From Bacilli bacterium (lineage in GTDB: Bacteria > Bacillota_I > Bacilli_A > RF39 > UBA660): DNA of 38,675 nt. Location of the stretch: positions 1 through 38,675 of the forward strand of contig SKGW01000053.1 in assembly GCA_007117285.1 (NCBI GenBank), written 5' to 3'. The position numbers were made by a program, and so were the translations under genes. The notes beneath the pieces are model-generated. The model made no database searches. It was not told the DNA's origin and saw only the letters and a list, made by a program, of their open reading frames with translations. Shown here one piece after another: positions 11,063-32,136 of the stretch. How positions within the stretch are numbered: position 1 is the stretch's first letter; each line of letters begins with the position of its first letter.

Positions 11063-11495
11063 TCAATTTTTGAAATATCATTTTATTTCCGGAATAGGGT
11101 GGATTTTAAATTTATTGATTTTCCTGTTTTTCCTAAAAAAATTCAATATTTTTGTATCCAATATTTTATCCACTTATATAACAATAACAGCCGTATTCAT
11201 ACTATCGGTATATAAAGTGTTTGATAGTACAGTTGATAAAAAGTCGATTAACTACGTTATATATTTGATATATAAAGTTTTATCAGTATTTATTTTTTCC
11301 TATGTTCTAGTAATGATTTATAATCTTCTATCAAAGGTTTTAGATAATCCTGTAATATTATCTAAAATACTAATCACCCCCTTAATTTCTTGTAGTAATT
11401 TTTTCGCATTAAAAATAATTATAGAGGAATTTGCCAAAAATAAGATAAAATGCTATTATTTAGAAAATAATGTAAAGGAGAGTAATTTGTATTGA
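11040..11495 (+). CDS. GtrA-like small polytopic membrane protein (putative lipid-linked sugar flippase)
   Basis: About 150 aa with four hydrophobic segments. Sits immediately after and overlaps the GT2 gene. The start is ambiguous (ATG 11040 or ATG 11010). Confidence 0.65.
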   Translation: MITKKTINQFLKYHFISGIGWILNLLIFLFFLKKFNIFVSNILSTYITITAVFILSVYKVFDSTVDKKSINYVIYLIYKVLSVFIFSYVLVMIYNLLSKVLDNPVILSKILITPLISCSNFFALKIIIEEFAKNKIKCYYLENNVKESNLY

Positions 11496-11515
11496 AAGTA
11501 AGGAATAATTTCACG

Positions 11516-12571
11516 ATGATCAAAAAGCTTGAAAAAAAAATCAAAGGTTTTACATTAATAGAGTTACTTGCGATTATTGTTATAATTGGTCTGCTAATAT
11601 TAGTAATTGTACCGGCGGTATCTGATGTAATTGAACATTCTAGAAAGAAAACTTTTCATTCCAGTATATCTAGCTTGGTTAAAATTGCCCAAAACACTTG
11701 TGCCGAAAGGGTGGCATTTGGTCAGGAAAAAGATGTTACTTATACTTTTGAAAACGGTATTCAAACAACTCACCCTAGCAATCAATCAAAATTATCATTT
11801 GCGGGAAAAGCTCCTCACGCTGGATATTTAATTATAAATGGGGACTGTGAGATAAGATTGTCGCTTTCAAACGGGAAATATTTTATTGAAAAGAGTTTTG
11901 AAAGCACGCTAAATCAGCCTGTTGCTTATGACGATCAAGATTTAGAGGCTCCTTATCTGAAGGCACCTTGCCGGGGAATGACTAGCATAGTTGATCCAAG
12001 AGATTCTAAAGAATACAAAATAGTTGAAATTGGAGATCAATGTTGGTTTGCTGAATATTTAGATTATGAAGATCCTCTTTGTATTTCAAATCCAATTGAT
12101 CATCCGTCAGCAACGGGTTGCAGAAGAAATAACAATATAGTTTATTACCAATTCGATGCCCTAATGAATGGCGAAACCACAGAAGGTAGTCAAGGAGTTT
12201 GCCCTACAGGCTGGTACGTTCCTACGGATGACGACTTTCATGCATTAGAAATTTACTATGCCGTCGATGAATGTTCTGCAACAAGAATAGGTTTGCATGG
12301 TTCTGGATCTGAGTCTTCATATGATTGTTCACCGGCAGGGTCAGCGCTAAAACACACTAATTATTTTAATGCGGAATTAGTTGGCTACGTTATACCTTAT
12401 TCGGGAAACCTCTTTAATTATGGTTTTGATGCACTACTAGTTAGTTCAAGTGAATATTATAACGATTACTCCATAGTCAGAATTGTTTCCGAATCTTCTG
12501 ATGCCATTAGTCGAGCCTATACTTCAACGTATAATTTGTTACCCTTGAGGTGCATAAAGAGCAGTCAATGA
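11516..12571 (+). CDS. Prepilin-type leader protein with pilin-like head and C-terminal Fibrobacter-succinogenes-major-paralogous (FISH) domain
   Basis: MIKKLEKKIKG/FTLIELLAIIVIIGLL is a class III signal (G/F with Glu at +5). C-terminal DPRDSKEYKIVEIGDQCWFAEYL ... CPTGWYVPTDDDF ... LPLRCIKSS matches the FISH-domain pattern. Ends with TGA. Confidence 0.85.
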   Translation: MIKKLEKKIKGFTLIELLAIIVIIGLLILVIVPAVSDVIEHSRKKTFHSSISSLVKIAQNTCAERVAFGQEKDVTYTFENGIQTTHPSNQSKLSFAGKAPHAGYLIINGDCEIRLSLSNGKYFIEKSFESTLNQPVAYDDQDLEAPYLKAPCRGMTSIVDPRDSKEYKIVEIGDQCWFAEYLDYEDPLCISNPIDHPSATGCRRNNNIVYYQFDALMNGETTEGSQGVCPTGWYVPTDDDFHALEIYYAVDECSATRIGLHGSGSESSYDCSPAGSALKHTNYFNAELVGYVIPYSGNLFNYGFDALLVSSSEYYNDYSIVRIVSESSDAISRAYTSTYNLLPLRCIKSSQ

Positions 12572-17564: not shown

Positions 17565-18914
17565 TTAATTTATCAATTTTTCAATGTTTTCCGACCATTT
17601 TCTTCTAATTTCTTCTAATTTTTCATTAGAAACAGCCTCAAATCGCGCTGTAAGGTTAGGTCCAGTATTAGAAGCTCTAATTAATGCAAAACCATCTTCA
17701 TAAATAATTTTACACCCATCCAATGTAATAACATCAAGTCCTTCTTTTTCAGCAACCTCTTTAATTTTTTCAATAACTGAAAATTTAATTGAATCTTCGG
17801 TTTTGAACTTTAACTCCTCGGTTGAATAGTAATTGTTAATTCCTTTCAAAAGAGAACTAACAGGAACTTTTTTTCTACTAATAATTTCCATTAATCTAAG
17901 CGAAGCATATATTCCATCGTCATAACCCAAAAATTTATCATTAAAAAATATATGTCCGGAAAATTCTCCTCCAAAAAGGATGTTTTCCTTTGAAATTGCT
18001 GATCTCAAATATGAATTTCCAGTTCTTGACAAAACAGGAATACCTCCCAATTTGTTAATTTCATCTTCTAGTGCCTTAGAACACTTAACATCAAATAAAA
18101 TTCTTTTATCTTTAATTTTTTCTAAAATGTCTCGAATAACAATAATCATTAATTTATCGGGCTCGATAATATTTCCCAATTCATCGACCATGCCAATTCG
18201 ATCAGCGTCTCCATCTAGAGCAAAGCCAACATCAGCACCTGTTTCAAGCACCTTATCAGATAAATCTTTTAAATTCTCCGGTACGCTTGGGTCAGGGTGG
18301 TGGTTTGGAAAAGAAGGATCTGATTCAAAAAACAAAGGCGTATATTTGATTGGTAATCTTTTTAAAATATCTTCGATAACAATTGAACCGCTACCATTTC
18401 CAACATCAAAGACCACATCTAAATTACCGATTTCAACATCTTTAAGAAGAAAATCCATGTAATGCTCTTTTATATCAACCTTTTTACAAGTTCCTTTTCC
18501 AGAGTTGAAATTTTTACTTTTAATAAGTTCTTTAAAATCTTGGATTTCTTGTCCGTGAGAATTATATTGGCCGTTAAAAGAAAACTTAAAACCATTATAC
18601 TCCTTTGGATTGTGAGAAGCGGTAATCATAATACCTGATTTTGATTTAAAAAAATGCCAAGAAAAATAATACATCGGAGTTGTAACAAGTCCTAAATTAA
18701 TTACATCAATTCCGCTGTCCATAATACCCTTGCTTAAAGCAGCAAAAAGATTTTCTGATGAATCGCGATTATCATAGCCAATAGTAGTAAACTCCTGTCC
18801 ATCATTGCCAATCCACGTGCCAAAAGCACGCCCTAAGTTATAGGCCATATCCTCATTTACTTGACTTGGATATACGCCTCTAATATCATAAGCTCTAAAA
18901 ATTGTTTCATCCAT
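17565..18914 (-). CDS. Phosphomannomutase/phosphoglucomutase (alpha-D-phosphohexomutase family)
   Basis: ITASHNPKEYNGFKF (active-site Ser loop), FALDGDADRIGMVD (metal loop), GGEFSGHIFF. The start is taken as ATG 18914 with a GGGTGA RBS. The GTG used by the track lies inside that RBS. Confidence 0.9.
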   Translation of the reverse strand: MDETIFRAYDIRGVYPSQVNEDMAYNLGRAFGTWIGNDGQEFTTIGYDNRDSSENLFAALSKGIMDSGIDVINLGLVTTPMYYFSWHFFKSKSGIMITASHNPKEYNGFKFSFNGQYNSHGQEIQDFKELIKSKNFNSGKGTCKKVDIKEHYMDFLLKDVEIGNLDVVFDVGNGSGSIVIEDILKRLPIKYTPLFFESDPSFPNHHPDPSVPENLKDLSDKVLETGADVGFALDGDADRIGMVDELGNIIEPDKLMIIVIRDILEKIKDKRILFDVKCSKALEDEINKLGGIPVLSRTGNSYLRSAISKENILFGGEFSGHIFFNDKFLGYDDGIYASLRLMEIISRKKVPVSSLLKGINNYYSTEELKFKTEDSIKFSVIEKIKEVAEKEGLDVITLDGCKIIYEDGFALIRASNTGPNLTARFEAVSNEKLEEIRRKWSENIEKLIN

Positions 18915-18930
18915 AGTATCACCCAAACAA

Positions 18931-18939
18931 ATTATAACA
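18931..18939 (-). promoter_or_regulatory. Extended -10 box (TGTTATAAT) for the phosphohexomutase gene
   Basis: The reverse complement of 18931-18939 is TGTTATAAT, about 17 nt upstream of the ATG. Implies a short leader. Confidence 0.5.
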
Positions 18940-18948
18940 TATAATTGT

Positions 18949-18977
18949 TTGAAAAATTAGACTAAACTGTGTATAAT
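18949..18977 (+). promoter_or_regulatory. Sigma-A-type promoter of the glucan synthase gene
   Basis: TTGAAA (18949-18954), a 17-nt spacer, TATAAT (18972-18977). GGAGG at 18995-18999 and ATG at 19005. Confidence 0.65.
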
Positions 18978-19004
18978 GTAAATGTATGTAACGTGGAGGT
19001 AATT

Positions 19005-22000
19005 ATGAAAAACACATCGATTAGAAATGTTAGAAAAAACATGAAATTTATTACAAATTATTATAAAAAACTAACAACTTATACCAAACAAACAAAAAGT
19101 GTCGGTAGTATAAACGAATGGATCGTTGATAATTACTACTTATTGAGTGAGCAAGAACAAACGATAAATCACGAATTAAGTAGTTTAAAAATACTTCAAA
19201 TTAAACCAAAGCGAAAGCAATATCTAGACAACTTAATTTGTTCATATTTAGAACAAGAGAATTTTCGATTAGATACAAACTTGCTATTTAAGTTTCTTAA
19301 TAATTATCAATTAGAAAATGATGATTTTTTTACGTATGATGAAATTGATTACATAAATAGTTCTATAAAATGTAACATAATTTCAAAATTAAGAATTTTA
19401 AGCGAAAAATTAAAATATAAATTTTTAGAAAAAGAAAAAATAGATCAATGTTTCAAAAAAATATCTAGCCAACTCGAGAAGGACAGCGAAGCAAGCATAG
19501 ATAACTGCCTACCAATAGATAAATCATTAATTGGTTCTCATTTTAAAATACTTGAGATTAACCACAGACTAAACAGCTTGGGCGAAAGATCAGAAGAAAT
19601 ATTTGTTAAGTTAAACGAGTTATTGATTTCTAACAATACCTCATTAAAAGAAATAATTAACGTAGAGCATGATGAAAGATCAAATGAAAACATACTAATG
19701 GTAAACTTAATTTCATCTTTTAAAGTTGCTATCAAATTTAAGTTAGAAGACTTGTATGCCAAAATAAGCTATGTTGAAAAAGCTTTAATTAACGAAAAAG
19801 CAGAAGTTTATGACACAATGTATGAAGTTTCAAAAATAGAGTATAGAAGTGAAATAAAAAAACAAGTAAAAAAGAAAAAAATAAGCGAGTACGAATTCGC
19901 TAAAAATTTGTTGGAAAAAGCGGGCGAGGAGCACGTTGGTTTTCACCTTTTTAAAAAGAAAAGATATAAAGCGCGAGCATATTTGTATGTGACGGCTGTT
20001 TTTTTAGTCGCTCTTTTTGTTAATTATGCGATATATATTGAATTGGGACTTTTAGCATTCATTCTTTTCCTATTACCAATGATAGGATTTTCGGTTGAAG
20101 TTATAACGCAAATTTTAATGAAAAATGTTGATACTCAAACGTTATTTAGAATAAAACTGGAAAATCATCTTCCTCAGAAGTACAGTACAATGGTTGTTAT
20201 TCCAACTATCTTAAAAGATCCAGACAAAGTAAATCAAATGTTTGATAACTTAGAGTTGTATTATTTATCAAACAGAGCACAAAATTTATATTTTTGTTTG
20301 CTTGGCGATGTTACTAGTGAATCAACTGCTAAAACAAAAATGGATGATAAAATTTTAAATGCTGGTCTTGAACGAGCAAGAAAGTTAAATGAAACATACG
20401 GTAAAAATATTTTTCATTTTGCTTATCGTAATCGTTTTTTCAATCCAAAAGAGGGATCGTTTTTAGGATACGAGAGAAAAAGAGGAGCACTCCACCATTT
20501 CAATCAGGCCCTATTGGGGAAATTATCTTTATCAGATCAAGAAAAATATTTTAAAGGGCATACGCTAGCTCCTTTAGAGGGGAAAATCAAGTATATAATA
20601 ACACTTGATGCCGACACAAAATTACTATTAAACACAGCATTAAAATTAATAGGAACAATGGTTCATCCAATGAATAAACCAATTCTTTCTGATGATGGAA
20701 GAAAAGTAGTAAAAGGTCATGCAATAATGCAACCGCGAGTCAGTATAGATGTCGAAGTAACAAATATATCAGAATACTCTCAATTGTTTGCTGGACTTGG
20801 TGGACTCGATATTTATTCAACAAAGCAATTTGATTTATATCAAGATGTTTTTGGTGAAGGAAGTTTTACAGGAAAAGGGATTTACGATTTAGAAATTTTT
20901 GATAAAGTTTTAGGAGATACTTTTCCAGAAAATTTAATCTTAAGCCACGACCTTTTAGAAGGTAATTACCTTCGTTGTGGATATATAAGCGATGTTGAAT
21001 TATTTGATGGATTTCCTTCAAAATATTTAAATGATGCAATGCGTCATCATAGATGGACTAGAGGAGATTGGCAGATAATTGGTTGGCTTAAAAAATATGT
21101 TAAAGATCATAAAAATGATTTAGCATTGAATCCTTTAAATTTAATAAGTCGATGGAAAATATTTGATAACTTAAGAAGAAGTTTAAGAAGTCCATTATTA
21201 TTTCTTATTGTTTTATTTGGGTTTGCATTAACTGATCGACCGACATTAGTTATGGGAATTGTTTTTATAATAATTGCTGTTCCTATTTTCTTCTACCTAT
21301 TGCATCAATTACTAGCAAGACAAAAATATGATATTTTACTTAGATACTATATGAGAATAATATGGGGATTAATGGCTGTTATTGCAAAATCTTTATTAGT
21401 TTTTGCACTACTTCCATACGAGGCCTTCCTATACATGAACGCAATTGTAAAAGCTTGTTATCGCATGCTTGTGAGTAAGAAAAACTTGTTAAACTGGGTT
21501 ACTTCTGAAGAAGTTGAGGCAACAGCAAAAAATACGCTAGGAAATTACTTTAAAAATTTCAAAGTTAATTACGTTGCAGCAATAGCAATTCTTTACTTTG
21601 CTAAAGATTTATCGATGGAGCATGTGTTTTTATCATACTTAGTAGCATTTATATGGTTAATTGCTCCGTTTTTGATGTACTTTGTTAGTAGAGATATTAA
21701 AAACGAACAAGAACAACCAGGAAAGAGAATGGAAAGCGATGTTCGTGAAATAGCACAACAAACTTGGGCTTATTTTGATAAAACATTAACAAAAGAAAAC
21801 AATTTCTTAGTTCCTGATAACTTTCAATTAAATAGAAATCAAAAATTTGATTCTAGAACCTCACCTACAAATATAGCATTTTCATTAACGGCTGTAATTT
21901 CAGCTTTTGAATTAAAATTAATAAGTAAAAACAGTGCTATAGATAAGATTAATAATATAATTAAAAACGTTGAATCTTTGAAAAAATGGAATGGACATTT

Positions 22001-25000
22001 ATACAATTGGTATGATATTAAAACAAAAAAAGAACTTCCACCACATTTTATTTCAACAGCTGATAGTGGAAACTTCATTTCGACTTTATATGTGGTAAAA
22101 GGATTTTTGAGTAAATGTTCTGGTTACAACTCTTTGAAGTATAGAATTCAAAAACTAATTGATAAAACAGACTTTTCAAAACTATATAACGAAGAAGGCG
22201 ATGTATTTAGTATTGGTTATGTAGTTAACGAAGGAACTTTGGTTCCGTATAACTATAATAACTTTTTATCAGAAGCGAGACTTGCTAGTTTTGTAGCTAT
22301 TGCAAAAGGTGATGTTCCTTTTAAACACTGGTTTAGATTGGATAAAACTTTGACAAAGCATAAATGGTATAAAGGAGTAGTTTCTTGGTCGGGAACGATG
22401 TTTGAATACTACATGCCACTTATTTTCATGAAAACATTTGAACACACATTACTTGATGAGACATATGCTTTTGCTTATTACGCTCAAAAAGAATTTGTTA
22501 ATGAAGTAAGTTCAAAAATACCTTGGGGTATTACTGAGTCAGCATACAATGAATTAGATGATTCGCAAAATTACAAGTATAAAGCATTTGGAATTCCTTA
22601 TTTGAAATTCCACGATAGTGAAATACCACAAATAGTAATATCACCATACGGTTCGATTATGGCTTTGACTAAATATCCGGTTGAAGTTTATAACAATATT
22701 AAAAAAATGAAAAAAATTGGTATGCAAGGTGAGTTCGGACTTTACGAGGCCTATGACCACGAAGATGGAGCTATAGTTAAAGCTTACTACGCTCACCATC
22801 AAGGAATGATTTTAACAAGTATAACTAATTATTTAAAAAACAATATAATCCAAGAGTATTTTCATGCCGACAAAAATATACAATCAGTTGAAATACTTTT
22901 AAAAGAAAAAGTTCAAATCAGAACATATATTGATTTGAAAATAGCTAGATATAAAAAATACAATTATAAGAGAGATGTTATCGATAGTGATATGCGAGAA
23001 CAGGAAGGAATTATGCCAATTCCTGAGGTTGGGGTATTATCAAATGGATTTTATTCAACTTTCATAAATGATCGAGGAATAGGATTCAGCAAATATAAAA
23101 ACTTACAAATAAATAGATACAGAAAAATAACTGATGAAAATCATGGATTGTTTGTTTATATTAAAAACACAAAAACTAATAAAATTTATCCTAACACTTA
23201 CAGTCCATCTTGCACGGAGCCCGATCACTATCATGTTGTCTTTGCATCGGATAGAATAAAATTTGTTCGTGAAGATGAAGATCTTATAACAACAACTGAA
23301 ATTACAGTTGCTAAGGATCATAATGCAGAAATTAGAAAAATCAAAGTTGAAAATACTTCACAAGAAAGCGTTGAGTTAGAATTAACTTCATATGGTGAAG
23401 TGATAATGGCTCGTCCTGAAGAAGACATAGCACACCCTGTTTTTAATAACGTTACAATTAAAGCTGAGATTGATGAAGTTACTTCCTCTTTAATGTTCTC
23501 AAGACGTTCAAGAACAAAAGAAAACACAAAATATTTTGTTATTAATCGCTTTTTTGCAGAAGAAGATGACGGTGTTTTTGAGTATGAAACTTCAAGAATG
23601 AATTTCTTAGGAAGAAACAACACAACTCTTAATCCAAGTAAAATAGTTAAAAATGAATCATTATCATCAGATTGCACACAACTATTAGAACCGATAATGA
23701 GTATTAGAAAAAAAATAACATTAAAACCAAACTCTAAAAAAACTTTATACTTACTTGTTGGATTTGGTAAATCTAGACAACAAGTTATGGAAATTGTTAA
23801 TGCTTACAACAATGATAAAAAAATTGAAGCAGCCTTTGATAAGGCCACTGTTTTAAACAATATGCGTAATAGGTATGCTGGTCTAAGCGGAATTGAAACT
23901 AGAGCTTACAATAGCCTCTTAAAATACGTCTACCAGCCAACTTATGAAGCAGGAAGATCTAATTTACTAAGAACTAATATTTTAACGCAACAAAACTTGT
24001 GGAAATTTGGAGTTTCGGGAGATCTTCCAATTATAGTCGTTGATGTTTTTAGTGCTGAGAATTCAGGGTTTATAAAAGATATACTTAGAGCATATGAGTT
24101 TTATAAAAGCAGAGCAATTTATATCGACATAATTATTATAAACAATGAAATTGATGAGAAAAAAGAAATTGTAAATAAATATGTTGAAAGATTACTTTAT
24201 CGAATTAACAATTTAAATTATTTCGAGGACTCTCCTGGTAGTGTCAAAGTAGTAAGTGATATTACCGAAGAAGAGAGAACTCTTCTAAAAATGGTATCCA
24301 GCTTATACTTTGATGGATCTCAGAGAAAACCTTTAACGGATCAAATATATGAAATGGAAGCTACAAAAACTTCAATTTCTAGACTTTGTTTCAAAAAAGA
24401 TATGATTCCATTGGGAAATAAAAATTCAAATGAGTACGGAAAATTTAGTGAAGATGGAAAAGAATTTACAATAAAAACAATGGATACACCAATGCCGTGG
24501 TCAAATGTTATTGCAAACGAAGAATTTGGTAGTGTTATTACTAATAACTTCGGTGGTTTTACATATGCTCATAACAGTAGAGAGTTTAAGTTAACTTCTT
24601 GGAGCAATGATCCAGTGGTTGATCCACCTAGTGAATCAATTTTCATAGACGGACTTAGATTAGTTCCGAGTGAAGTAGTTCATGGATTTGGATATTCTAA
24701 ATTTATTACGAAAACAGAAAATTATGATATTGAAACTACTGTTTTTGTTCCAACTAATGATAATGTCAAAATATATGATGTTTTAATTAAATCCAAAAAT
24801 AGAAAAAGATGCTTGGTGGAATTCGATATTAAACCGGTATTGGGAGTTAGCGAAGAAACTACAAACAAATATATTTTATCGGAATTTGATCCAGTGCATA
24901 ATTGTTTATTTATGAGGAATACATATAGTAAAATTTTCAAAAATGAAAAAGTCTTTGTTAGTAGTTCAAAAGATATAAGTAGTTGTAATCTGGAGGATAT

Positions 25001-26576
25001 TAACTCTAAGTCAATTATGGTAAATCTTGATTTAGAAAATGAAAACAGAGTTAGCTTTATGTTGGGGTGTGGTGATTTTGAAAACGTTATACCAAAGTAT
25101 AGAGATTTTGAAAATATCAACAATGAACTTAATAATGTCAAAAAATATTGGGATTCTAAGGTTGGTAATATAACTATTGAAACACCTGATAAAGATCTTA
25201 ACAATATGGTTAATGGTTGGATACTCTACCAGGCCTACGCGTCGAGATTATATTCAAGAGCGGCGTTTTATCAAGTTGGTGGAGCAACTGGTTTTAGAGA
25301 TCAACTTCAAGATTCGCTTTGTCTTCTATACAACAATCCAGAATATGCAAGAAAACAAATTTTAGAGCATGCAAATCATCAGTTTGCTGAAGGCGATGTT
25401 CTTCACTGGTGGCATGAAGATTTAAGATTTGGAGCAAGAACAAGGTTTTCAGACGATTATCTTTGGCTTGTGTATTGTACTTATGAATATGTTAAAGCAA
25501 CTAATGATTACTCAATATTAGAAGAAAAAGTAGGTTTTGTAGAAGCAGATCAACTTCAAGAATCAGAATCAGAAAAAGGTGTTGATTTTACTTATTCTGC
25601 ATCAAAGGAAACACTATACTATCACTTGAAACTTGCAATTAATAAAGCTGTTTCTCAATTTGGGAAAAACAAACTTCCGTTAATGGGCAGTGGTGACTGG
25701 AATGATGGTATGAGTAAAGTAGGTCATTTAGGAAAAGGTGAGAGTGTTTGGGTTGGATTTTTCCTTCATGAAAACCTTGAACGAATGAGTGAAATGACCG
25801 AAGATGCGGAATTTAAAGAAATGTGTATGGCAAAATCTCGTGAATTAAAAGAGTCAATTAATGAAAACGCTTGGGATGGAGCTTGGTATACTAGAGCGTT
25901 CTTTGACGATGGAACACCTATGGGAACATCTGAAAACAAAGAATGTCAAATAGATCTAATCTCTCAAGCATGGAGCATTATTACTGATGTTGCGCCAAAA
26001 GATAGAAGAAAATCAGTTATTTCTGCTGTTGAAAATCAACTTGTTGATAAAGAAGTAGGACTAATTAAACTTTTAGACCCAGCTTTCACAGGACTTGAAA
26101 ACAATCCAGGATACATAAGCGATTATCTTCCTGGTGTTCGTGAAAATGGTGGTCAATATACTCATGGAGCGCTTTGGTATATAATGGCTTTGGCAAAACT
26201 TCGAGATCCAAGAGCGTATGAACATTTTAAAATGATAATGCCAAGTGGTAAGGACTCCGATGTTTACAAGGTTGAACCATATGTCATTGCGGCAGATATA
26301 TATTCTAATCCTGCTTTCAACGGTCACGGTGGATGGACTTGGTATACAGGTTCTGCCAGCTGGGCCTACAAAGTTGCTTTGGAAGGAATATTAGGCTTTA
26401 AAAAAGTTGGAAACACTTTAGTTATAAAACCTAATTTCCCAAAAAAGTGGGGAAGTATAAAAATTTCTTATGAGTATTTTGAAACAACATACAATTTAGA
26501 AATTAACTATAAGGATGAAGAATCTATTATCGAACTAGAAAATGACAAAAAAATACATGATATAGTTTTAAAGTAA
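19005..26576 (+). CDS. cgs: Cyclic beta-1,2-glucan synthase-like giant protein (membrane GT84-type domain, glucoamylase-like middle region, GH94 phosphorylase-type C-terminus)
   Basis: 2523 aa from ATG 19005. GT84-like motifs: ERKRGAL, ITLDADT, MQPRV, GKGIYD, LSHDLLEG, RHHRWTRGDWQ, flanked by hydrophobic helices. GH94-like motifs: GATGFRDQLQD, HWWH, GSGDWNDGM, RENGGQYTHGALW, WYTGSASWAY. Confidence 0.85.
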   Translation: MKNTSIRNVRKNMKFITNYYKKLTTYTKQTKSVGSINEWIVDNYYLLSEQEQTINHELSSLKILQIKPKRKQYLDNLICSYLEQENFRLDTNLLFKFLNNYQLENDDFFTYDEIDYINSSIKCNIISKLRILSEKLKYKFLEKEKIDQCFKKISSQLEKDSEASIDNCLPIDKSLIGSHFKILEINHRLNSLGERSEEIFVKLNELLISNNTSLKEIINVEHDERSNENILMVNLISSFKVAIKFKLEDLYAKISYVEKALINEKAEVYDTMYEVSKIEYRSEIKKQVKKKKISEYEFAKNLLEKAGEEHVGFHLFKKKRYKARAYLYVTAVFLVALFVNYAIYIELGLLAFILFLLPMIGFSVEVITQILMKNVDTQTLFRIKLENHLPQKYSTMVVIPTILKDPDKVNQMFDNLELYYLSNRAQNLYFCLLGDVTSESTAKTKMDDKILNAGLERARKLNETYGKNIFHFAYRNRFFNPKEGSFLGYERKRGALHHFNQALLGKLSLSDQEKYFKGHTLAPLEGKIKYIITLDADTKLLLNTALKLIGTMVHPMNKPILSDDGRKVVKGHAIMQPRVSIDVEVTNISEYSQLFAGLGGLDIYSTKQFDLYQDVFGEGSFTGKGIYDLEIFDKVLGDTFPENLILSHDLLEGNYLRCGYISDVELFDGFPSKYLNDAMRHHRWTRGDWQIIGWLKKYVKDHKNDLALNPLNLISRWKIFDNLRRSLRSPLLFLIVLFGFALTDRPTLVMGIVFIIIAVPIFFYLLHQLLARQKYDILLRYYMRIIWGLMAVIAKSLLVFALLPYEAFLYMNAIVKACYRMLVSKKNLLNWVTSEEVEATAKNTLGNYFKNFKVNYVAAIAILYFAKDLSMEHVFLSYLVAFIWLIAPFLMYFVSRDIKNEQEQPGKRMESDVREIAQQTWAYFDKTLTKENNFLVPDNFQLNRNQKFDSRTSPTNIAFSLTAVISAFELKLISKNSAIDKINNIIKNVESLKKWNGHLYNWYDIKTKKELPPHFISTADSGNFISTLYVVKGFLSKCSGYNSLKYRIQKLIDKTDFSKLYNEEGDVFSIGYVVNEGTLVPYNYNNFLSEARLASFVAIAKGDVPFKHWFRLDKTLTKHKWYKGVVSWSGTMFEYYMPLIFMKTFEHTLLDETYAFAYYAQKEFVNEVSSKIPWGITESAYNELDDSQNYKYKAFGIPYLKFHDSEIPQIVISPYGSIMALTKYPVEVYNNIKKMKKIGMQGEFGLYEAYDHEDGAIVKAYYAHHQGMILTSITNYLKNNIIQEYFHADKNIQSVEILLKEKVQIRTYIDLKIARYKKYNYKRDVIDSDMREQEGIMPIPEVGVLSNGFYSTFINDRGIGFSKYKNLQINRYRKITDENHGLFVYIKNTKTNKIYPNTYSPSCTEPDHYHVVFASDRIKFVREDEDLITTTEITVAKDHNAEIRKIKVENTSQESVELELTSYGEVIMARPEEDIAHPVFNNVTIKAEIDEVTSSLMFSRRSRTKENTKYFVINRFFAEEDDGVFEYETSRMNFLGRNNTTLNPSKIVKNESLSSDCTQLLEPIMSIRKKITLKPNSKKTLYLLVGFGKSRQQVMEIVNAYNNDKKIEAAFDKATVLNNMRNRYAGLSGIETRAYNSLLKYVYQPTYEAGRSNLLRTNILTQQNLWKFGVSGDLPIIVVDVFSAENSGFIKDILRAYEFYKSRAIYIDIIIINNEIDEKKEIVNKYVERLLYRINNLNYFEDSPGSVKVVSDITEEERTLLKMVSSLYFDGSQRKPLTDQIYEMEATKTSISRLCFKKDMIPLGNKNSNEYGKFSEDGKEFTIKTMDTPMPWSNVIANEEFGSVITNNFGGFTYAHNSREFKLTSWSNDPVVDPPSESIFIDGLRLVPSEVVHGFGYSKFITKTENYDIETTVFVPTNDNVKIYDVLIKSKNRKRCLVEFDIKPVLGVSEETTNKYILSEFDPVHNCLFMRNTYSKIFKNEKVFVSSSKDISSCNLEDINSKSIMVNLDLENENRVSFMLGCGDFENVIPKYRDFENINNELNNVKKYWDSKVGNITIETPDKDLNNMVNGWILYQAYASRLYSRAAFYQVGGATGFRDQLQDSLCLLYNNPEYARKQILEHANHQFAEGDVLHWWHEDLRFGARTRFSDDYLWLVYCTYEYVKATNDYSILEEKVGFVEADQLQESESEKGVDFTYSASKETLYYHLKLAINKAVSQFGKNKLPLMGSGDWNDGMSKVGHLGKGESVWVGFFLHENLERMSEMTEDAEFKEMCMAKSRELKESINENAWDGAWYTRAFFDDGTPMGTSENKECQIDLISQAWSIITDVAPKDRRKSVISAVENQLVDKEVGLIKLLDPAFTGLENNPGYISDYLPGVRENGGQYTHGALWYIMALAKLRDPRAYEHFKMIMPSGKDSDVYKVEPYVIAADIYSNPAFNGHGGWTWYTGSASWAYKVALEGILGFKKVGNTLVIKPNFPKKWGSIKISYEYFETTYNLEINYKDEESIIELENDKKIHDIVLK

Positions 26577-26601
26577 GGAGTATGCTCTTTACTTTTTTCA
26601 A

Positions 26602-26630
26602 TTCACAAAATAAACAAATAATGGTATACT
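26602..26630 (+). promoter_or_regulatory. Sigma-A-type promoter of pgi
   Basis: TTCACA (26602-26607), a 17-nt spacer with TG, TATACT (26625-26630). ATG at 26651. Confidence 0.55.
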
Positions 26631-26650
26631 TTTATAAAGGTAGTGATTAT

Positions 26651-27802
26651 ATGAAAATTGATTTTAAAACATATTCAAATATTGATATAGATAAAGAATT
26701 AGAAAAGCATGATTTTTCTAAATTAGGTAGTTTTTTTGAAAATCATTCGAATTATACTGGGTGGTTAAATAGTAATTTAAATTTAGAAAAAACAAAAGAA
26801 AAGGGTAACTTTTTCAAAAAAGAATGTGACATATTATTAGTCGTGGGAATAGGCGGTTCATATCTAGGCGCCAAGGCCATAATAGATGCGCTAAGTGTTG
26901 AAAACAAAGTGGAAATCTTGTTTGTCGGAAACACTTTATCAACTGATGCTCTAGTTAATGTAAAGAAAAAAATAGAAAATAAACGAGTTGGAATTAATTA
27001 TATTTCCAAATCTGGTGAAACATTAGAAACGCGAATTATTTTTAATGAATTAATGAAAGTGATGAAAATAAAATATTCTGATGATGAATTAAAAAAGAGA
27101 GTTGTTTATACAACGGGGAATAAAGAAATTGTTCCGAGCGGATATGATTATTTTTTAATTCCCGATAACATAGGCGGTCGATATTCTGTATTTACAGCAG
27201 TTGGTTTTCTACCAATATATGTTGCGGGTATTGATGTGGATAATTTGTATTTAGGATCTCAAAGCAGTGAAATAAGTGAAGATGTTAAAAAATATGCTAT
27301 TTTTCGAAAGAAAATGCAAGATGATGGGAAAAAAATTGAAGCGTATGTTACTTATAATCCAAAACTATTCTTTTTAATTGAATGGATTAAGCAACTATAT
27401 GCCGAATCGCTGGGAAAAGAAGGTCAAGGAATTTTTCCGGTAGGGCTTATAAATACGACCGATCTTCATTCAATTGGTCAGTTCATGCAAGAAGGCTCAA
27501 AGATTACATTTGAAACGGTAATTAATTTTGAAGAAAAAAAAGAAATATACATTGATGAGTATTCTAAATATTTAAGTGAAATTAATGAAATAGCTCAAAC
27601 CTCAACTTCAAAAGCTCATTATGAGGCAGAAGTTCCTAATATCATTATTAACAATGGAGAGTTGAATGCTAAGAATTTAGGTTATTTAATGAAGTTTTTA
27701 ATGATGTCTTGTGCTGTTAGTGGATACTTGGAAAATATCAATCCATTTAATCAAGAAGGAGTTCAAGTTTACAAAAAAGAAATGTTAGATAAATTAGTTT
27801 AG
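26651..27802 (+). CDS. pgi: Glucose-6-phosphate isomerase (short form)
   Basis: VVGIGGSYLGAKA, SKSGETLET, GGRYSVFTAVG and ESLGKEG motifs. The ATG at 26651 has a GGTAGTGA-type RBS. The upstream track extension overlaps the promoter. Confidence 0.9.
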   Translation: MKIDFKTYSNIDIDKELEKHDFSKLGSFFENHSNYTGWLNSNLNLEKTKEKGNFFKKECDILLVVGIGGSYLGAKAIIDALSVENKVEILFVGNTLSTDALVNVKKKIENKRVGINYISKSGETLETRIIFNELMKVMKIKYSDDELKKRVVYTTGNKEIVPSGYDYFLIPDNIGGRYSVFTAVGFLPIYVAGIDVDNLYLGSQSSEISEDVKKYAIFRKKMQDDGKKIEAYVTYNPKLFFLIEWIKQLYAESLGKEGQGIFPVGLINTTDLHSIGQFMQEGSKITFETVINFEEKKEIYIDEYSKYLSEINEIAQTSTSKAHYEAEVPNIIINNGELNAKNLGYLMKFLMMSCAVSGYLENINPFNQEGVQVYKKEMLDKLV

Positions 27803-27816
27803 TCTGTATATGTTTG

Positions 27817-27825
27817 TGTTATAAT
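27817..27825 (+). promoter_or_regulatory. Extended -10 box (TGTTATAAT)
   Basis: Part of the 14-mer TTTGTGTTATAATA, which recurs at 32067-32080. The RBS AGGAG and the ATG at 27847 follow. Confidence 0.55.
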
Positions 27826-27846
27826 ATAAAAAATAGGAGTGATTTT

Positions 27847-30501
27847 ATGAATAAAAAAGGTTTTACGTTGGCAGAGTTACTAGCGGTAATAGTTATAATT
27901 GCATTAATTATATTAATCATTGTTCCAATAATGGGAGAGGTTTTATATGAGGCGCGAAGAGATTCATTTCAAAATGATGTTTCTTCACTTTTTAATGTAG
28001 CTTCAATTGAAAACTCAAGTAATAGTAGACATAAAACATTTTTATTAAAAGAAAGAAAACTACACTCAGTTGAGGGCAACAAGGAAATTCAATTTCGCGG
28101 TAATGTTAACGGCTCGGGGTATATTTATATAAGCCCAGAAAAAGAAGCTGCTTTTATTTGTAATGACGCTTGGTGCGTTGAAAAAATTGGTGAAAATTTT
28201 GTTGTTACTGAAGTCGATGAAAACCTAGCTTTTTCAACAAAAGCCCTATTAACTTATAATGAGTTAGATGAAAATGAAAACTTTAATTCTTTATTTATGG
28301 TTTTTTCGGAAAACACTATAACTGAAATGAAATATATTATTAACAGAAGTGCAACTCCGTTGATTTCAACTTCTCCTCTTTGGGATACGGCTAATCACAT
28401 ACCAGAAGCTTTTAGCAATGTTGAATTAGGCGTTGCAGAGGCTGGTGTTTATTATGTTCACACGTTAGCTGTCGATTCTTTAGCAAACCGAACTGTAAAC
28501 GTATCAGATCCAATCTTTATGAATCCAAATGATGAGAACAGAGTTGCAGAGCTAGTTCAGTTAAGAGACTTTATTGGAGCTGCTGTAACACCAAATAGAG
28601 ATGTTAGATATGATATGATCGATCCTAGTCGATATGAAAATTCAACAATACCCGAAATCATAAAAGACTTTAAATTACTTCAAAGAGCGGGGTATGATGG
28701 TGTTGTTGTTGAAAAAGTAGGAATGGCAAGTGGCGGAATCGGTGATGCTTCTTTAAATATTAATACAGCATGGTATAACATCGGTGAATCTATTTATTCA
28801 GGAAGTACAACTAAATACAGCGTAATCGAAAAAATTATGGAAGCCGCAGAAACAACTGGTATTCAAGTATTTCTTGGAAACGTTGCAATAAAGGACTGGT
28901 CAAATCCAAATGTTATTTCGAATTTGGATTGGCAAAATGCAATAGCACAAATGTTTATAAGTGTTAATACAGAATTGCACACATTGTATTCTGGAAGTTC
29001 ATCATTCGCAGGGTTTTACTTCAATAACGAGATTTTTACAAACAATATAAATTTAGAAAGTTACTGGGCGAACGTCATAAATCAAGTAGTGGTAAACGTT
29101 AATTCATTGGCGGGCTCTCCCACTTTTAAAGTTGGAGCTCACATTTCCGGAAAGTATAACGCTACACCAGCGGAAGTGCAGTCAGGGTTTACTAGCTTAG
29201 TTAGTGGTGTTGGTTTTAGAAATGGTGATCGAATTTTATTAAAAGACGGGTTTGGGTTAGGGCATTACAAGCCAATTGATGTATTTGCGCATGCCGAAGC
29301 TATCCAAACAGCAGTAGCAACTTCAGCAACCACTTTATCTTTGAACTTTGTTGTTGAAAATGGTAGTTATTCGGAAAAAAACGAAATTGCTTCAATTGAA
29401 AGATATAAAGAACAACTTAACACTGTAGCTAGATTTGGTGGAGATTTTTATTCATACTCGTATTTAGAAAATTATAATTTCTTTGCTAAAGATAATTTAA
29501 ACGAAAAAATATCTACAAGTTATGATAAGGGATTTAGAGAATTCATAGGACAGGACACTTCGGCTGATTCAGCGATAACAGCGCTTTATGCTCCAGCGGG
29601 AGGATCTGTATTTGTCGATGTGGATGGACGTGAAGCTCCAGTTCCGGCAGGTTTCAATGTCTCTTTAAGTTTAGATGAAAGAAAAATAGAAAATGGTTTA
29701 GTTATTCACGACTCTCTAGGTAATCAATTCGTTTGGGTTCCTGTTGATTTAGGAGTTAAAGCAAAAGGTTATAATTATGGAAGTAATGAAACAGATAAAG
29801 TCGCGTATGCTAGATATTTAACGAACGGAATAACAGACCTAGCTCCACTTAATTCACATACAATGCCAACAGGAGTTACTTCTGAGGCGGCACAAATAGA
29901 AAAATATAGGGGGTTTTATATTGGAAGATATGAATCAACTTATGAACATAGTGGTGGAACTAGAAGAGTTATGATAAAGCCAACAACAGATGACAAAATA
30001 AGCACATCATTTGCATGGGCTAGTGCAACAATAGCTAATGACGGATACTTATGGAATAACATAACTTATGTTGATGCCAAAGCTAAAGCTGAGGCAATGC
30101 GCACTCACTACGGTTATACACCAAGAACAGGTTTGGTTACAGGAACACAGTGGGACACTTTCTTAAGATGGATTTATGTTAATAATCAAGAAAAAACGAT
30201 AATTGATGACGGTCGAGGTTGGGGTAATTACAACAATTCAGTATTCCCGGCATCGGGAGGTAATTATCAAGTGGGAACTTTAAAAGGAACCGGAACAAAT
30301 GATACATGGTATATTAACAATGTTGCCGATGTTGCCGGAAACCTTCGTGAGTGGACTGCTGAAACAAATGGTAGTCAATACGTAATAAGATCAAACGGAT
30401 ACGACGGAAGCGGATTGTCTGGAGGACCATCTTACTCCGTGTTGAGCAATTCAACAGCTACGGCTAACACGGGATTTAGAGTAGTGCTATATATTGATTA
30501 A
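27847..30501 (+). CDS. Prepilin-type leader protein carrying a pilin-like head, an Ig-like spacer, a DUF4434-like TIM-barrel region and a C-terminal FGE/SUMF1-like domain
   Basis: MNKKG/FTLAELLAVIVIIALIILIIVP is a class III signal. The middle region has RAGYDGVVVEK ... IQVFLGN ... FAGFYFNNEI (glycoside-hydrolase-like TIM-barrel pattern). The C-terminus has GFYIGRYEST, TGTQWDTFLRWI, GNLREWTAE and GFRVVLY (FGE-sulfatase / C-type-lectin-fold pattern). Confidence 0.8.
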   Translation: MNKKGFTLAELLAVIVIIALIILIIVPIMGEVLYEARRDSFQNDVSSLFNVASIENSSNSRHKTFLLKERKLHSVEGNKEIQFRGNVNGSGYIYISPEKEAAFICNDAWCVEKIGENFVVTEVDENLAFSTKALLTYNELDENENFNSLFMVFSENTITEMKYIINRSATPLISTSPLWDTANHIPEAFSNVELGVAEAGVYYVHTLAVDSLANRTVNVSDPIFMNPNDENRVAELVQLRDFIGAAVTPNRDVRYDMIDPSRYENSTIPEIIKDFKLLQRAGYDGVVVEKVGMASGGIGDASLNINTAWYNIGESIYSGSTTKYSVIEKIMEAAETTGIQVFLGNVAIKDWSNPNVISNLDWQNAIAQMFISVNTELHTLYSGSSSFAGFYFNNEIFTNNINLESYWANVINQVVVNVNSLAGSPTFKVGAHISGKYNATPAEVQSGFTSLVSGVGFRNGDRILLKDGFGLGHYKPIDVFAHAEAIQTAVATSATTLSLNFVVENGSYSEKNEIASIERYKEQLNTVARFGGDFYSYSYLENYNFFAKDNLNEKISTSYDKGFREFIGQDTSADSAITALYAPAGGSVFVDVDGREAPVPAGFNVSLSLDERKIENGLVIHDSLGNQFVWVPVDLGVKAKGYNYGSNETDKVAYARYLTNGITDLAPLNSHTMPTGVTSEAAQIEKYRGFYIGRYESTYEHSGGTRRVMIKPTTDDKISTSFAWASATIANDGYLWNNITYVDAKAKAEAMRTHYGYTPRTGLVTGTQWDTFLRWIYVNNQEKTIIDDGRGWGNYNNSVFPASGGNYQVGTLKGTGTNDTWYINNVADVAGNLREWTAETNGSQYVIRSNGYDGSGLSGGPSYSVLSNSTATANTGFRVVLYID

Positions 30502-30521
30502 GAGGTTAGCGCCTCTTTTTT
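30500..30521 (+). terminator. Intrinsic terminator
   Basis: AAGAGG / CCTCTT stem with a TTAGCG loop, followed by T5. Confidence 0.8.
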
Positions 30522-30558
30522 ACTTGTGGTTAACTTTCTTACGTTTTCTTTTTATCAG

Positions 30559-31291: not shown

Positions 31292-32051
31292 CTTTGTAAG
31301 TAAAAAAACAAAGAAGCTGATATTAATGTATAACTGCTTGTTTTTATGTGTTATTTATAACATCAGCATTTACAAGTTAGTTGTAATTGATAATGAGAAA
31401 CTTTCTTTTTTTCTTTTGGGATTATTTATTTTCGAACTGCTTTTTGTTGTAGATTATATAAAAAATATTAAAAAGCTTAATAGAGTCGAAAAATTTAATT
31501 TAATTAGTGAAGAGCAGTTAGAAAGACTACACGATTCACAAAACGAAATAATGGTCTTGCGAAGCCTGCTGGAAACCAAAAGAATAATGATAAAAAAATT
31601 AGATGATGAATGTTCCAAAATAAGTAGCAAAGCGATTAAAAACATTATTATTCAAAAAATAAATCAAACGAGATTTTCACAAATTGACTACGATATAAAA
31701 ATCAGTACATACTCCTATAATGAAATTAATTTAATGTTGGAAAAAAGTGTTTGTAAAATGGTAAATATTTTTCTTGATAATGCAATTGAATCTTGTCAAA
31801 ATTCTGGGAGGAAAATAATTGCGATTTCAATTTTCGAAGGATATAAAAAAATTGAAATCGGTATCGCCAATTACCTTACCAAACCGGTTGATTTAAATTT
31901 AATTTCTGTTAAAGGTTTTTCAACAAAAGGGAATAAAAGAGGCTTTGGTCTTTTTGAGGCAAGTAAAATTGTTTCTAACAATGTTAAAATCAGTAATCAA
32001 ACGAAAATTGTTGGTGATGTTTTTTTGCAAATAATTGAAGTTGAAATTTAG
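31275..32051 (+). CDS. GHKL-type sensor histidine kinase, AgrC-like catalytic core with a short two-helix N-terminus
   Basis: GTG start overlaps the regulator's stop. Only two hydrophobic helices. Candidate H-box RLHDSQNEI. C-terminal NAIESC ... GFSTKGNKRGFGLFEASKIV is typical of AgrC/ComD-type ATPase domains. Confidence 0.75.
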   Translation: MKNIFNFVSKKTKKLILMYNCLFLCVIYNISIYKLVVIDNEKLSFFLLGLFIFELLFVVDYIKNIKKLNRVEKFNLISEEQLERLHDSQNEIMVLRSLLETKRIMIKKLDDECSKISSKAIKNIIIQKINQTRFSQIDYDIKISTYSYNEINLMLEKSVCKMVNIFLDNAIESCQNSGRKIIAISIFEGYKKIEIGIANYLTKPVDLNLISVKGFSTKGNKRGFGLFEASKIVSNNVKISNQTKIVGDVFLQIIEVEI

Positions 32052-32070
32052 TTAAAAATTTAATAATTTG

Positions 32071-32079
32071 TGTTATAAT
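32071..32079 (+). promoter_or_regulatory. Extended -10 box (TGTTATAAT), upstream hpf promoter candidate
   Basis: Same 14-mer as at 27813-27826. A second box, TGATATAAT, at 32106-32114 lies closer to the ATG at 32137. Confidence 0.45.
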
Positions 32080-32136
32080 AGTTACTGTTATGATTTTACA
32101 AAATATGATATAATTTATATAGAAGGGAATGATGAT

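Follow-up and report, generated by a model that had tools for sequence, protein, structure and literature searches.

Gene, start site and expression signals

The window analysed here is a stretch of 38,675 nt, and the gene under study occupies positions 27,847–30,501 of its forward strand (stop codon included), where the list of open reading frames (ORFs) and their translations gives a modular pilin of 884 amino acids. The longest ORF at this place spans 27,814–30,501 and opens at a TTG codon (27,814). The ATG at 27,847 is preferred over this upstream TTG because a ribosome-binding site, AGGAG (27,835–27,839, forward strand), lies 7 nt before it. An extended –10 element, TGnTATAAT (27,817–27,825, forward strand), can be read from the sequence within the 14-mer TTTGTGTTATAATA, which confirms the proposal in the initial annotation that the gene has an extended –10 box of its own; no match to a –35 element was found for this promoter. 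The identical 14-mer occurs again before hpf (32,067–32,080), against a chance expectation of 0.12 matches. At the 3′ end, a hairpin followed by a U-run resembles an intrinsic terminator (30,500–30,525, forward strand; hairpin proper, 30,500–30,517). It has a 7-bp stem and a 4-nt loop (–8.5 kcal/mol, z –1.44) and is real but modest; the terminator first described as strong is present, and its strength had been overstated. Upstream of the gene lie cgs and pgi and downstream a LytTR/GHKL pair, so that its position between glucan-synthesis genes and a two-component system stands, and all seven of the sequence motifs quoted in the initial annotation were found at the positions given for them.

The prepilin leader and pilin module

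The protein begins with a short leader peptide, MNKKG (27,847–27,861, forward strand), for which cleavage by PilD is predicted after Gly5. The class III signal peptide and the start of the mature pilin read MNKKG↓FTLAELLAVIVIIALIILIIVP, with Gly at position –1, Phe at position 1 and Glu at position 5 of the mature protein. Pfam N_methyl (PF07963; residues 2–25, 22.6 bits, cut-off 21.2) and TIGR02532 (22.5 bits, cut-off 16.3) both match above their cut-offs, which bears out the prepilin leader proposed earlier. The pilin module (27,862–28,221, forward strand) is delimited by secondary structure in an AF2 model and by similarity to other pilin heads. Phe1, Glu5 and Pro22, numbered from the first mature residue, lie in its hydrophobic α1 helix; Pro22 was identified in the sequence itself. 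The AF2 model, a single one built from 13 sequences from which both the pilin-head fold and that of the following spacer are taken, at pLDDT 65–90 over these two parts, has a 49-residue N-terminal helix (residues 8–56) and a β-sheet head (63–122) with pLDDT 65–86. The head holds the sole cysteines of the 884-aa protein, arranged as Cys105-x4-Cys110. Pfam and PDB sequence searches with the N-terminal 219 aa returned only noise. The module is 32–58% identical to other pilin heads of the same genome, with similarity reaching to about residue 120, and heads matching it occur in 23 of the 24 family relatives.

The genome of this uncultured bacterium is 769 kb in size and encodes the prepilin peptidase PilD (Peptidase_A24; contig C3), two PilB/T ATPases (T2SSE; C14 and C45) and PilC (T2SSF; C3 and C10). 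It also contains 22 ORFs with prepilin leaders, which take up 3.9% of its bases and many of which carry adhesin-type cargos, namely GLUG, BspA-type LRR, Fib_succ_major, CBM96, DUF285 and Listeria–Bacteroides repeats. The spending of about 4% of a 0.77-Mb genome on pilin-borne surface modules suggests an attachment-based lifestyle.

The spacer and the DUF4434 barrel

The pilin module is followed by a β-sandwich spacer (residues ~126–228; 28,222–28,530, forward strand), the strands of which run from 129 to 226 in the AF2 model with pLDDT 76–91. Secondary structure points to an Ig-like fold class, and the spacer is kept among full-length homologues at 25–35% identity.

Residues ~245–545 (28,579–29,481, forward strand) form a DUF4434 (β/α)8 barrel according to Pfam, profile and Foldseek comparisons. 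Pfam DUF4434 (PF14488), of the Glyco_hydro_tim clan, matches residues 274–540 with 45 bits (cut-off 30), covering profile positions 24–273 of 283, and a search of the whole genome recovers the same match. The AF2 model of the barrel has eight β–α units between residues 253 and 543; Foldseek aligns it with BT_0435 (PDB 4h41; E 7.5e-9, TMt 0.70) and with Cwp19 (TMt 0.56), and further matches are to GH66, GH5, GH2 and GH42 barrels. The family profile reaches 4h41 in the PDB at 5e-13. The DUF4434-type TIM barrel that had been recognized from sequence pattern is therefore upheld both by the Pfam cut-off and by the fold of BT_0435. The isolated barrel, used as the query of a word-index homologue search, found nothing. 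In the AF2 model, Asn394–Glu395 lies at the end of strand 4 (387–397) and Glu504 at the end of strand 7 (498–504). By homology and in the models, the barrel appears to have the clan GH-A arrangement of candidate catalytic residues, with Asn–Glu395 and Glu504 in these places.

BT_0435 of Bacteroides thetaiotaomicron is the structural representative of DUF4434. It belongs to the same Pfam family, and both candidate catalytic Glu residues align with it. Unlike the modular pilin, it stands alone (~340 aa) without pilin, spacer or lectin, and identity between the two is ~12%. It was deposited as a “putative alpha-L-fucosidase,” a predicted activity. From sequence and models, the barrel of the modular pilin may be a retaining glycosidase whose target is an external glycan, from a host, a partner cell or a food polymer.

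The C-terminal lectin-fold domain

The last domain of the protein (residues ~586–884; 29,602–30,498, forward strand) ends in GFRVVLYID and is assigned as a non-catalytic FGE-type C-type-lectin-fold domain from AF2, profile and homologue comparisons. PF03781 matches neither the whole protein nor the isolated C-terminal domain, with E values of up to 10 allowed. Searching Pfam and the PDB by sequence with the isolated domain returned only noise, and PHROGs gave no match in the analysis of the modular pilin. Placement in the FGE/C-type-lectin fold is indirect and comes from three lines of sequence and model comparison. First, PF03781 is matched by 35 of 56 aligned homologues (best E 4e-10). Second, the family profile finds pFGE (1y4j, 2e-6) and TvpA (2y3c, 4e-6) in the PDB, and also PorK, EgtB and FGE. 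Third, the AF2 model (pLDDT 94.8) is matched by Foldseek to TvpA (3.5e-5) and also to PorK, TaqVP, PvdO, human FGE and EgtB.

The domain shares its fold with FGE/SUMF1 and EgtB/OvoA, and the motifs GFYIGRYE, TGTQWD, GNLREW and GFRVVLY correspond to FGE consensus blocks. Unlike FGE and EgtB/OvoA, it lacks a PF03781 match, a Cu-binding Cys pair and a DinB domain and is predicted to be extracellular. Residues 571–884 contain no cysteine, and the FGE active-site Cys pair (Cu(I), substrate binding) is absent; because it has no cysteine, the domain is not a formylglycine-generating enzyme. Of the label “FGE/SUMF1-like” given initially, the fold is retained on the evidence of AF2/Foldseek and the profile, whereas the enzyme is not, and the HMM comparison with PF03781 yields no match.

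An FGE-type lectin fold without the Cys pair is likewise found in TvpA (2y3c) of Treponema denticola, TaqVP (5vf4) of Thermus, PorK/GldK (9mzu) and pFGE/SUMF2 (1y4j). Matches to the fold are mostly non-catalytic binders and phage fibre tips, and the viral matches to the domain are phage tail-fibre proteins. As in the SUMF-like tips of phage tail fibres and in the TvpA/TaqVP group, where the fold serves in binding, it occupies the C-terminal, distal end of the protein. By analogy with phage tail fibres and the variable proteins of DGRs, the domain may be a targeting or adhesion module for the barrel. It carries a subfamily-specific, strongly conserved long loop of the form WGNY...GNY...TG.N..W. 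The FGE-like surface-domain family is large and unannotated, with 2,272 protein clusters (50%-identity representatives) and up to 32 matches within one 1.5-Mb genome.

A probable modular pilin with an enzyme-like cargo

We read the protein, with a probability of roughly 0.55, as a modular type IV (minor) pilin whose displayed cargo is a retaining-glycosidase-like barrel and a targeting lectin; on this reading the gene was probably acquired and is not tied to cgs. Prepilin peptidase would cleave after Gly5, the α1 helix would keep the protein in the membrane, and the type IV pilus machinery of the genome could load it into a filament, the tip of which is the likeliest position because the cargo of ~760 aa is bulky. 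The C-terminal lectin-fold domain would then target or attach the protein, and the barrel would cleave an external glycan. The gene, which has a promoter of its own, would stand by itself and be functionally separate from cgs.

Counting one representative per cluster at 50% identity, the barrel-plus-lectin unit is found in 19 or more protein clusters, and the N-termini that precede it are prepilin leaders, pilin-like segments without Glu5, or plain transmembrane segments. The N-termini vary, and therefore extracellular anchoring is the common requirement. The full-length homologues P0003 and P0004 start with a plain transmembrane segment, and P0007 and P0008 carry a leader, G↓ITLIAL, in which Glu5 is missing. 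Judged from the first two of these sequences, the cargo can evidently work on a plain transmembrane anchor, without a pilus. Pilus assembly would then be dispensable for the function of the family, as expected if the present protein were a membrane-anchored ectoenzyme that is never polymerized and uses its prepilin leader only as a signal-anchor, remaining in the cell wall or membrane as lipoproteins and type II membrane proteins do. We nevertheless regard such an ectoenzyme as unlikely, since this copy keeps all pilin hallmarks (Gly–1, Phe1, Glu5, Pro22 and the predicted β-sheet head with its Cys-x4-Cys loop) and the genome, despite extreme reduction, retains a full pilus machinery and ~21 other ORFs with prepilin leaders.

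The present copy also differs from its family on the catalytic face of the barrel, where five family-conserved residues are replaced (Q259D, Q289E, Q466K, H541E and Y542N). With these replacements, the specificity could have changed or the activity been lost. If activity is lost, the protein would be a pure adhesin, with a TIM barrel that binds glycan or acts as a scaffold and a cargo that serves attachment alone. The other pilin cargos of the genome are all binding modules, in keeping with such a role, and no published activity was found for any DUF4434 member in the literature on DUF4434, PF14488, BT_0435 and 4H41. Against it, this copy still has E395 and E504, the candidate catalytic pair, together with the Asn that precedes E395; all three are invariant across 19 aligned family members, and the two Glu align with Glu residues of BT_0435. 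A purely adhesive role is accordingly judged improbable, and a glycosidase-like barrel displayed on a pilin remains the preferred reading.

Relation to the glucan-synthesis genes

The initial annotation had linked the protein to β-glucan or another surface glycan, and in the form considered here it would belong to the cgs–pgi unit as an accessory and trim, remodel or bind the β-1,2-glucan that the adjacent Cgs produces. The arrangement of the locus lends itself to this idea: the modular pilin gene shares the strand of pgi, only 44 nt separate it from the pgi stop codon, no terminator-like hairpin lies in that interval, and the upstream protein shows the Cgs-type architecture (GT2, Glycoamylase and GH94). 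Comparison with other genomes argues otherwise. None of 77 homologue loci has a cgs match nearby, in flanks of at most 10 kb that end sooner where the contig does, and the neighbourhoods of P0004, P0006 and P0010 consist of housekeeping genes. Conversely, pgm–cgs–pgi is conserved in three relatives (G007, G005 and G030), and unrelated housekeeping genes follow pgi in G007 and G005, the two for which DNA past pgi is available, the G030 contig stopping at pgi. Gene order downstream of pgi differs among all relatives examined, and neither cargo domain is securely found in 150 genomes of the same family. The gene’s own extended –10 element also counts against an accessory role. The established β-1,2-glucanases (GH144, GH162, GH186 and GH189) are not known to be DUF4434 barrels. 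The homologue loci and the pgm–cgs–pgi context in relatives rule out conserved synteny with cgs, and the proposed link to β-glucan is abandoned as very improbable.

The remaining candidate, a DGR variable protein with a hypermutated C-terminal lectin fold, was prompted by best fold matches that are DGR variable proteins (TvpA and TaqVP) and by one reverse transcriptase in the genome (C29:1862–2503), and it can be dismissed, as the assembly holds no template repeat of the gene’s 3′ 960 nt (best match, 45 nt at 78% identity), no repeats flank the lone reverse transcriptase, which is on a different contig, and the C-terminal domain is the best-conserved segment of the protein (41–54% identity), not the most variable part of the family. 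The modular pilin thus differs from the TvpA/TaqVP group in having no DGR and no variable region, in its own conserved loop and in its fusion to an enzyme-like barrel.

Comparison with known modular pilins

Modular pilins are an established class, with a catalogue of more than 1,200 proteins and 264 architectures (PMC8179133), which already includes pilins joined to an FGE domain (IPR005532; 8 proteins) and to Fib_succ_major (40 proteins). The modular minor pilins of Streptococcus sanguinis are PilB (pilin and vWA) and PilC (pilin and concanavalin-like lectin). A literature search for FGE-sulfatase with pilin found nothing relevant. Like PilB, PilC and the catalogued proteins, the present one has a small class III pilin module that displays a bulky cargo, in a monoderm host with type IV pilus machinery. 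Unlike them, it carries a tripartite cargo (spacer, enzyme-like TIM barrel and lectin fold), and its incorporation into a pilus is only predicted. Peptidases are the only enzymatic modules named in the text of PMC8179133, and within the available part of the catalogue DUF4434 (IPR027849, PF14488) is absent from the modular-pilin architectures, as are the GH5, GH16, GH18 and GH25 entries that were looked for. The initial remark that the combination of pilin, DUF4434 and FGE-type fold is unusual agrees with the absence of DUF4434 from these architectures, as far as the available part of the source extends. What is new here is the cargo of DUF4434 barrel and lectin fold; display on a pilin is already known.

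Modular pilins account for new functions of simple filaments, and nearly all of their characterized or catalogued cargos bind. A pilin with a glycosidase-like barrel and its own targeting lectin would widen the concept to carbohydrate-active enzymes, and DUF4434 and the FGE-like surface-domain family would gain a testable function. A more far-reaching picture, which we hold to be doubtful, is that of a retractile type IV pilus tipped with a working glycoside hydrolase, in which the lectin docks on a specific glycan at the surface of another cell or polymer, the barrel cuts it at a distance and the filament then retracts. If true, it would be a horizontally acquired enzymatic “harpoon” of an ultra-small bacterium that is probably dependent on a host or partner, and the first enzyme-tipped pilus that acts on carbohydrates.

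Composition and origin

The cargo had been suspected of being compositionally foreign from the G+C counts of two sequence lines, 32/60 at 29,581–29,640 and 15/60 at 31,381–31,440, both of which are correct. The GC content of the gene is 0.359, compared with 0.351 expected from its amino-acid composition and the codon usage of the genome. It is GC2 that drives the rise; GC3 stands at 0.238 (z 0.78), and codons are chosen as elsewhere in the genome. The rise is explained by amino-acid composition with host-like codon usage, the outcome that the initial annotation had itself named as refuting its idea, and the GC2-driven rise, the host-like GC3 and the synonymous codon choice together rule out compositional foreignness. 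The case for a foreign origin comes instead from distribution: because neither cargo domain was securely found among the 150 same-family genomes, the cargo was probably acquired horizontally. In their database records, the homologues are assigned to Bacillota or Clostridia MAGs.

Domain architecture of the prepilin-leader protein

A single long open reading frame occupies 27814–30501 on the forward strand of the window. Within it, the ATG at 27847 is the credible start, with AGGAG at 27835–27839, 7 nt 5′ of the ATG, and translation to 30501 gives a product of 884 aa. The stretch from TTG 27814 holds promoter DNA with an extended −10 box (TGnTATAAT, 27817–27825, forward strand). The 14-mer TTTGTGTTATAATA occurs identically at 27813–27826 and 32067–32080 (two matches vs 0.12 expected by chance), where it makes up the extended −10 regions of this gene and of hpf, respectively; at both genes, the ORF finder starts its prolonged frame at the TTG within the 14-mer. 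The terminator-like hairpin with a U-run at 30500–30525 (forward strand; 7 bp, −8.5 kcal/mol, z −1.44 vs shuffles) is of modest strength.

The initial annotation had read the product as a pilin carrying a TIM barrel and an FGE/SUMF1-like domain, and each motif it quoted was found in its place. The prepilin leader is confirmed by Pfam N_methyl (22.6 bits vs a cut-off of 21.2) and by TIGR02532, which also passes its own cut-off; the leader, MNKKG↓FTLAELLAVIVIIALIILIIVP, has Gly-1, Phe1, Glu5 and Pro22. An AlphaFold2 model of residues 1–571 (built from 13 sequences; mean pLDDT 83, pTM 0.74) contains an N-terminal helix of 49 residues, a β-sheet head (residues 63–122) with the only cysteines of the whole protein (C105-x4-C110), a β-sandwich (residues 129–226) and an eight-fold β/α barrel (residues 253–543). 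The DUF4434-type barrel also holds up: DUF4434 is matched at 45 bits (cut-off 30), a search with the family profile recovers 4h41 (BT_0435), a DUF4434 structure, at 5e-13, and 4h41 is the best single-domain Foldseek match (TM 0.70 on the target), followed by Cwp19 and then GH66, GH5, GH2 and GH42 barrels.

For the C-terminal domain (residues ~586–884), the proposed FGE/SUMF1-like identity stands as a fold, although the domain itself has no Pfam match, even at E≤10. PF03781 is matched by 35 of 56 aligned homologues, and the family profile finds pFGE (1y4j, 2e-6), TvpA (2y3c, 4e-6), PorK, EgtB and FGE in the PDB. The domain model (pLDDT 94.8) matches the folds of TvpA, PorK, TaqVP, CalU17, PvdO, FGE and EgtB and, in a viral library, the SUMF-like tips of phage tail fibres. 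Cysteine is absent from the domain, which therefore lacks the Cys pair that binds copper in true FGE. Its identity to relatives is the highest of the protein (41–54% vs 22–33% for the barrel), and it is read as a predicted lectin-like binding module with a conserved ligand.

Predicted display on a pilus

Models and homology show the predicted outward order along the chain as spacer, barrel and lectin-fold domain. PilD would cut after Gly5, and the α1 helix would anchor the protein and enable loading by the pilus machinery. With a cargo of 760 aa, the filament tip would be the likeliest position, an argument also made for modular pilins in the available text of PMC8179133. The barrel would hydrolyze a glycan outside the cell, with the lectin-fold domain as its targeting or attachment module.

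The source genome (769-kb assembly, with the window an entire contig; GC 30.7%, completeness rating 94.6%) has genes for a prepilin peptidase, for two ATPases of the PilB/T type and for platform proteins of the PilC type; the window itself has none of these assembly genes. Its 22 prepilin-leader ORFs total 10,028 codons (3.9% of bases), with examples on other contigs at C16:10557–13703, C55:14994–18035, C15:3682–6246, C68:1291–3645 and C59:194–2452. Surface-binding or repeat modules are recognizable in eight of the ten largest others (GLUG repeats, Listeria-Bacteroides repeats, BspA-type LRR, two Fib_succ_major, CBM96 and DUF285), and a further Fib_succ_major ORF lies at 11492–12568 in the window, where a prepilin-leader ORF is placed at 11516–12571. 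The pilin head appears to be the organism's general surface-display carrier, and among the pilin genes scanned, only that at 27847–30501 has an enzyme-like cargo. Three small tandem pilins at C55:24664–26335 resemble major subunits.

The barrel-plus-lectin unit is common to at least 19 protein clusters, each counted as one 50%-identity representative, with 28–37% overall identity. Their N-termini include canonical prepilin leaders (P0057/L009, P0058, L010), a pilin-like G↓ITLIAL leader lacking Glu5 (P0007, P0008) and plain transmembrane anchors (P0003, P0004). Since the N-termini vary, what the members share is a need to be anchored in the membrane by the N-terminus and to hold the cargo outside the cell; the pilin form is one anchoring option. 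An anchored ectoenzyme that never polymerizes would fit the plain anchors, and the genome's pilus machinery fits polymerization; we regard the non-polymerizing form as unlikely. The lectin-fold module alone occurs in 2,272 representative clusters (E≤0.001), mostly at the extreme C-terminus and repeated in some proteins. The Clostridia MAG STCSWMC_228 (G525, 1.5 Mb) has 32 cargo matches, 31 of them the FGE-like module alone and mostly in open frames of ~360–450 aa; L014 (426 aa), the only match whose frame was read throughout, carries a pilin-like leader. A second MAG (G524, locus L010) carries a tandem pair of full-length DUF4434+FGE-like genes. These copies show that an unannotated family of surface proteins has undergone large paralogous expansion in small-genome Firmicutes.

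The InterPro entry IPR005532 is, from its number, presumably the FGE domain. The nearest known kind of protein is the modular type IV pilin, such as S. sanguinis PilB and PilC and those in the PMC8179133 catalogue, whose available text lists >1,200 proteins in 264 architectures, including pilin+IPR005532 (8 proteins) and pilin+IPR011871, Fib_succ_major (40 proteins). That text names peptidases as the sole enzymatic pilin cargos; DUF4434 is absent from it, as are the four glycoside-hydrolase entries sought (GH5, GH16, GH18 and GH25). Against the catalogue text available, DUF4434 plus a lectin fold is therefore a new cargo on a known design and not a new kind of system, pilin display itself being known.

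Candidate catalytic site

Strand 4 of the barrel ends in Asn394-Glu395 and strand 7 in Glu504; both glutamates are invariant in 19 protein-family members and align to Glu in 4h41. This placement is consistent with the clan GH-A arrangement of a retaining glycosidase, and from it we predict catalysis; a literature search turned up no DUF4434 protein with a reported activity. Five catalytic-face positions conserved in the family (same residue in ≥83% of other members) are substituted: Q259D (28621–28623), Q289E (28711–28713), Q466K (29242–29244), and H541E and Y542N (29467–29472). The substitutions suggest that the specificity has changed or that the site is weakened; both candidate catalytic glutamates are retained despite them, and the substrate may have shifted. 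A cargo serving adhesion alone, its barrel catalytically dead, would agree with a weakened site, but not readily with the retained pair, and we consider it improbable.

Genomic neighborhood

Upstream lie pgi and a gene for a 2535-aa Cgs-type protein (GT2 + Glycoamylase + GH94); downstream are genes for a LytTR regulator and a GHKL kinase, then hpf and secA. The initial annotation had suggested a functional link to the glucan genes. The 44-nt gap from pgi lacks a terminator, so read-through is possible and co-expression with pgi in the source organism would be allowed. However, cgs was matched near none of 77 homologue loci (flanks up to 10 kb where the contig allows), and three homologue contigs with precomputed annotation have housekeeping neighbors only. 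The pgm-cgs-pgi genes are kept in two same-family genomes and one same-class genome (together G007, G005 and G030), and the pilin gene is absent from both readable flanks: HU and gatCAB follow pgi in G007 and RNase J and ftsY in G005, with the G030 contig ending at pgi. The proposed link is not borne out, and a role as a Cgs accessory is very improbable. The divergent pgm / cgs-pgi arrangement (17565–27802 in the window; L107 in G007, L108 in G005, L111 in G030), with a Cgs-type synthase of ~2500 aa at 49–52% identity, is kept in reduced genomes of 0.8–1.1 Mb in two families of the class, for which such a synthase is a large investment.

A variable protein of a diversity-generating retroelement (DGR) was rejected: no template repeat was found across the assembly, the C-terminal domain is conserved rather than variable, and the genome's sole reverse-transcriptase ORF (C29:1862–2503, L089; 327 aa, RVT_1 62.5 bits) has no direct repeats ≥40 nt within 3.6 kb, so that no template/variable pair is visible there.

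Composition and origin

The gene's GC of 0.359 is at the 95th percentile among the genome's long ORFs, and the initial annotation had suggested that the cargo may be compositionally foreign. The excess falls in codon position 2 (0.397; GC3 0.238, z 0.78), amino-acid composition with genome codon usage predicts 0.351, and synonymous codon choice is 0.4 SD off the genome mean, which, by the initial annotation's own yardstick, removes that ground for a foreign origin. Among 150 same-family genomes (one per genus), whole-cargo and PF14488 searches returned nothing and the lectin-domain search one marginal match (2e-4); the matches in 399 same-class genomes came to just five for DUF4434, all weak and stand-alone, and one that was FGE-like. 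Pilin-head relatives, unlike the cargo domains, occur in 23 of 24 family genomes. This phyletic pattern argues for probable acquisition of the cargo. Contamination is unlikely, as the gene sits within a contig whose flanks are syntenic to relatives. Elsewhere in the genome, two long minus-strand ORFs, on C58 (427 aa) and C67 (416 aa), are very atypical in synonymous codon choice (7 to 10 SD under the genome mean); the genome's highest ORF GC, noted with them, is 0.58. Contaminating contigs, spurious ORF calls across RNA genes or foreign DNA gained recently could explain the two ORFs.
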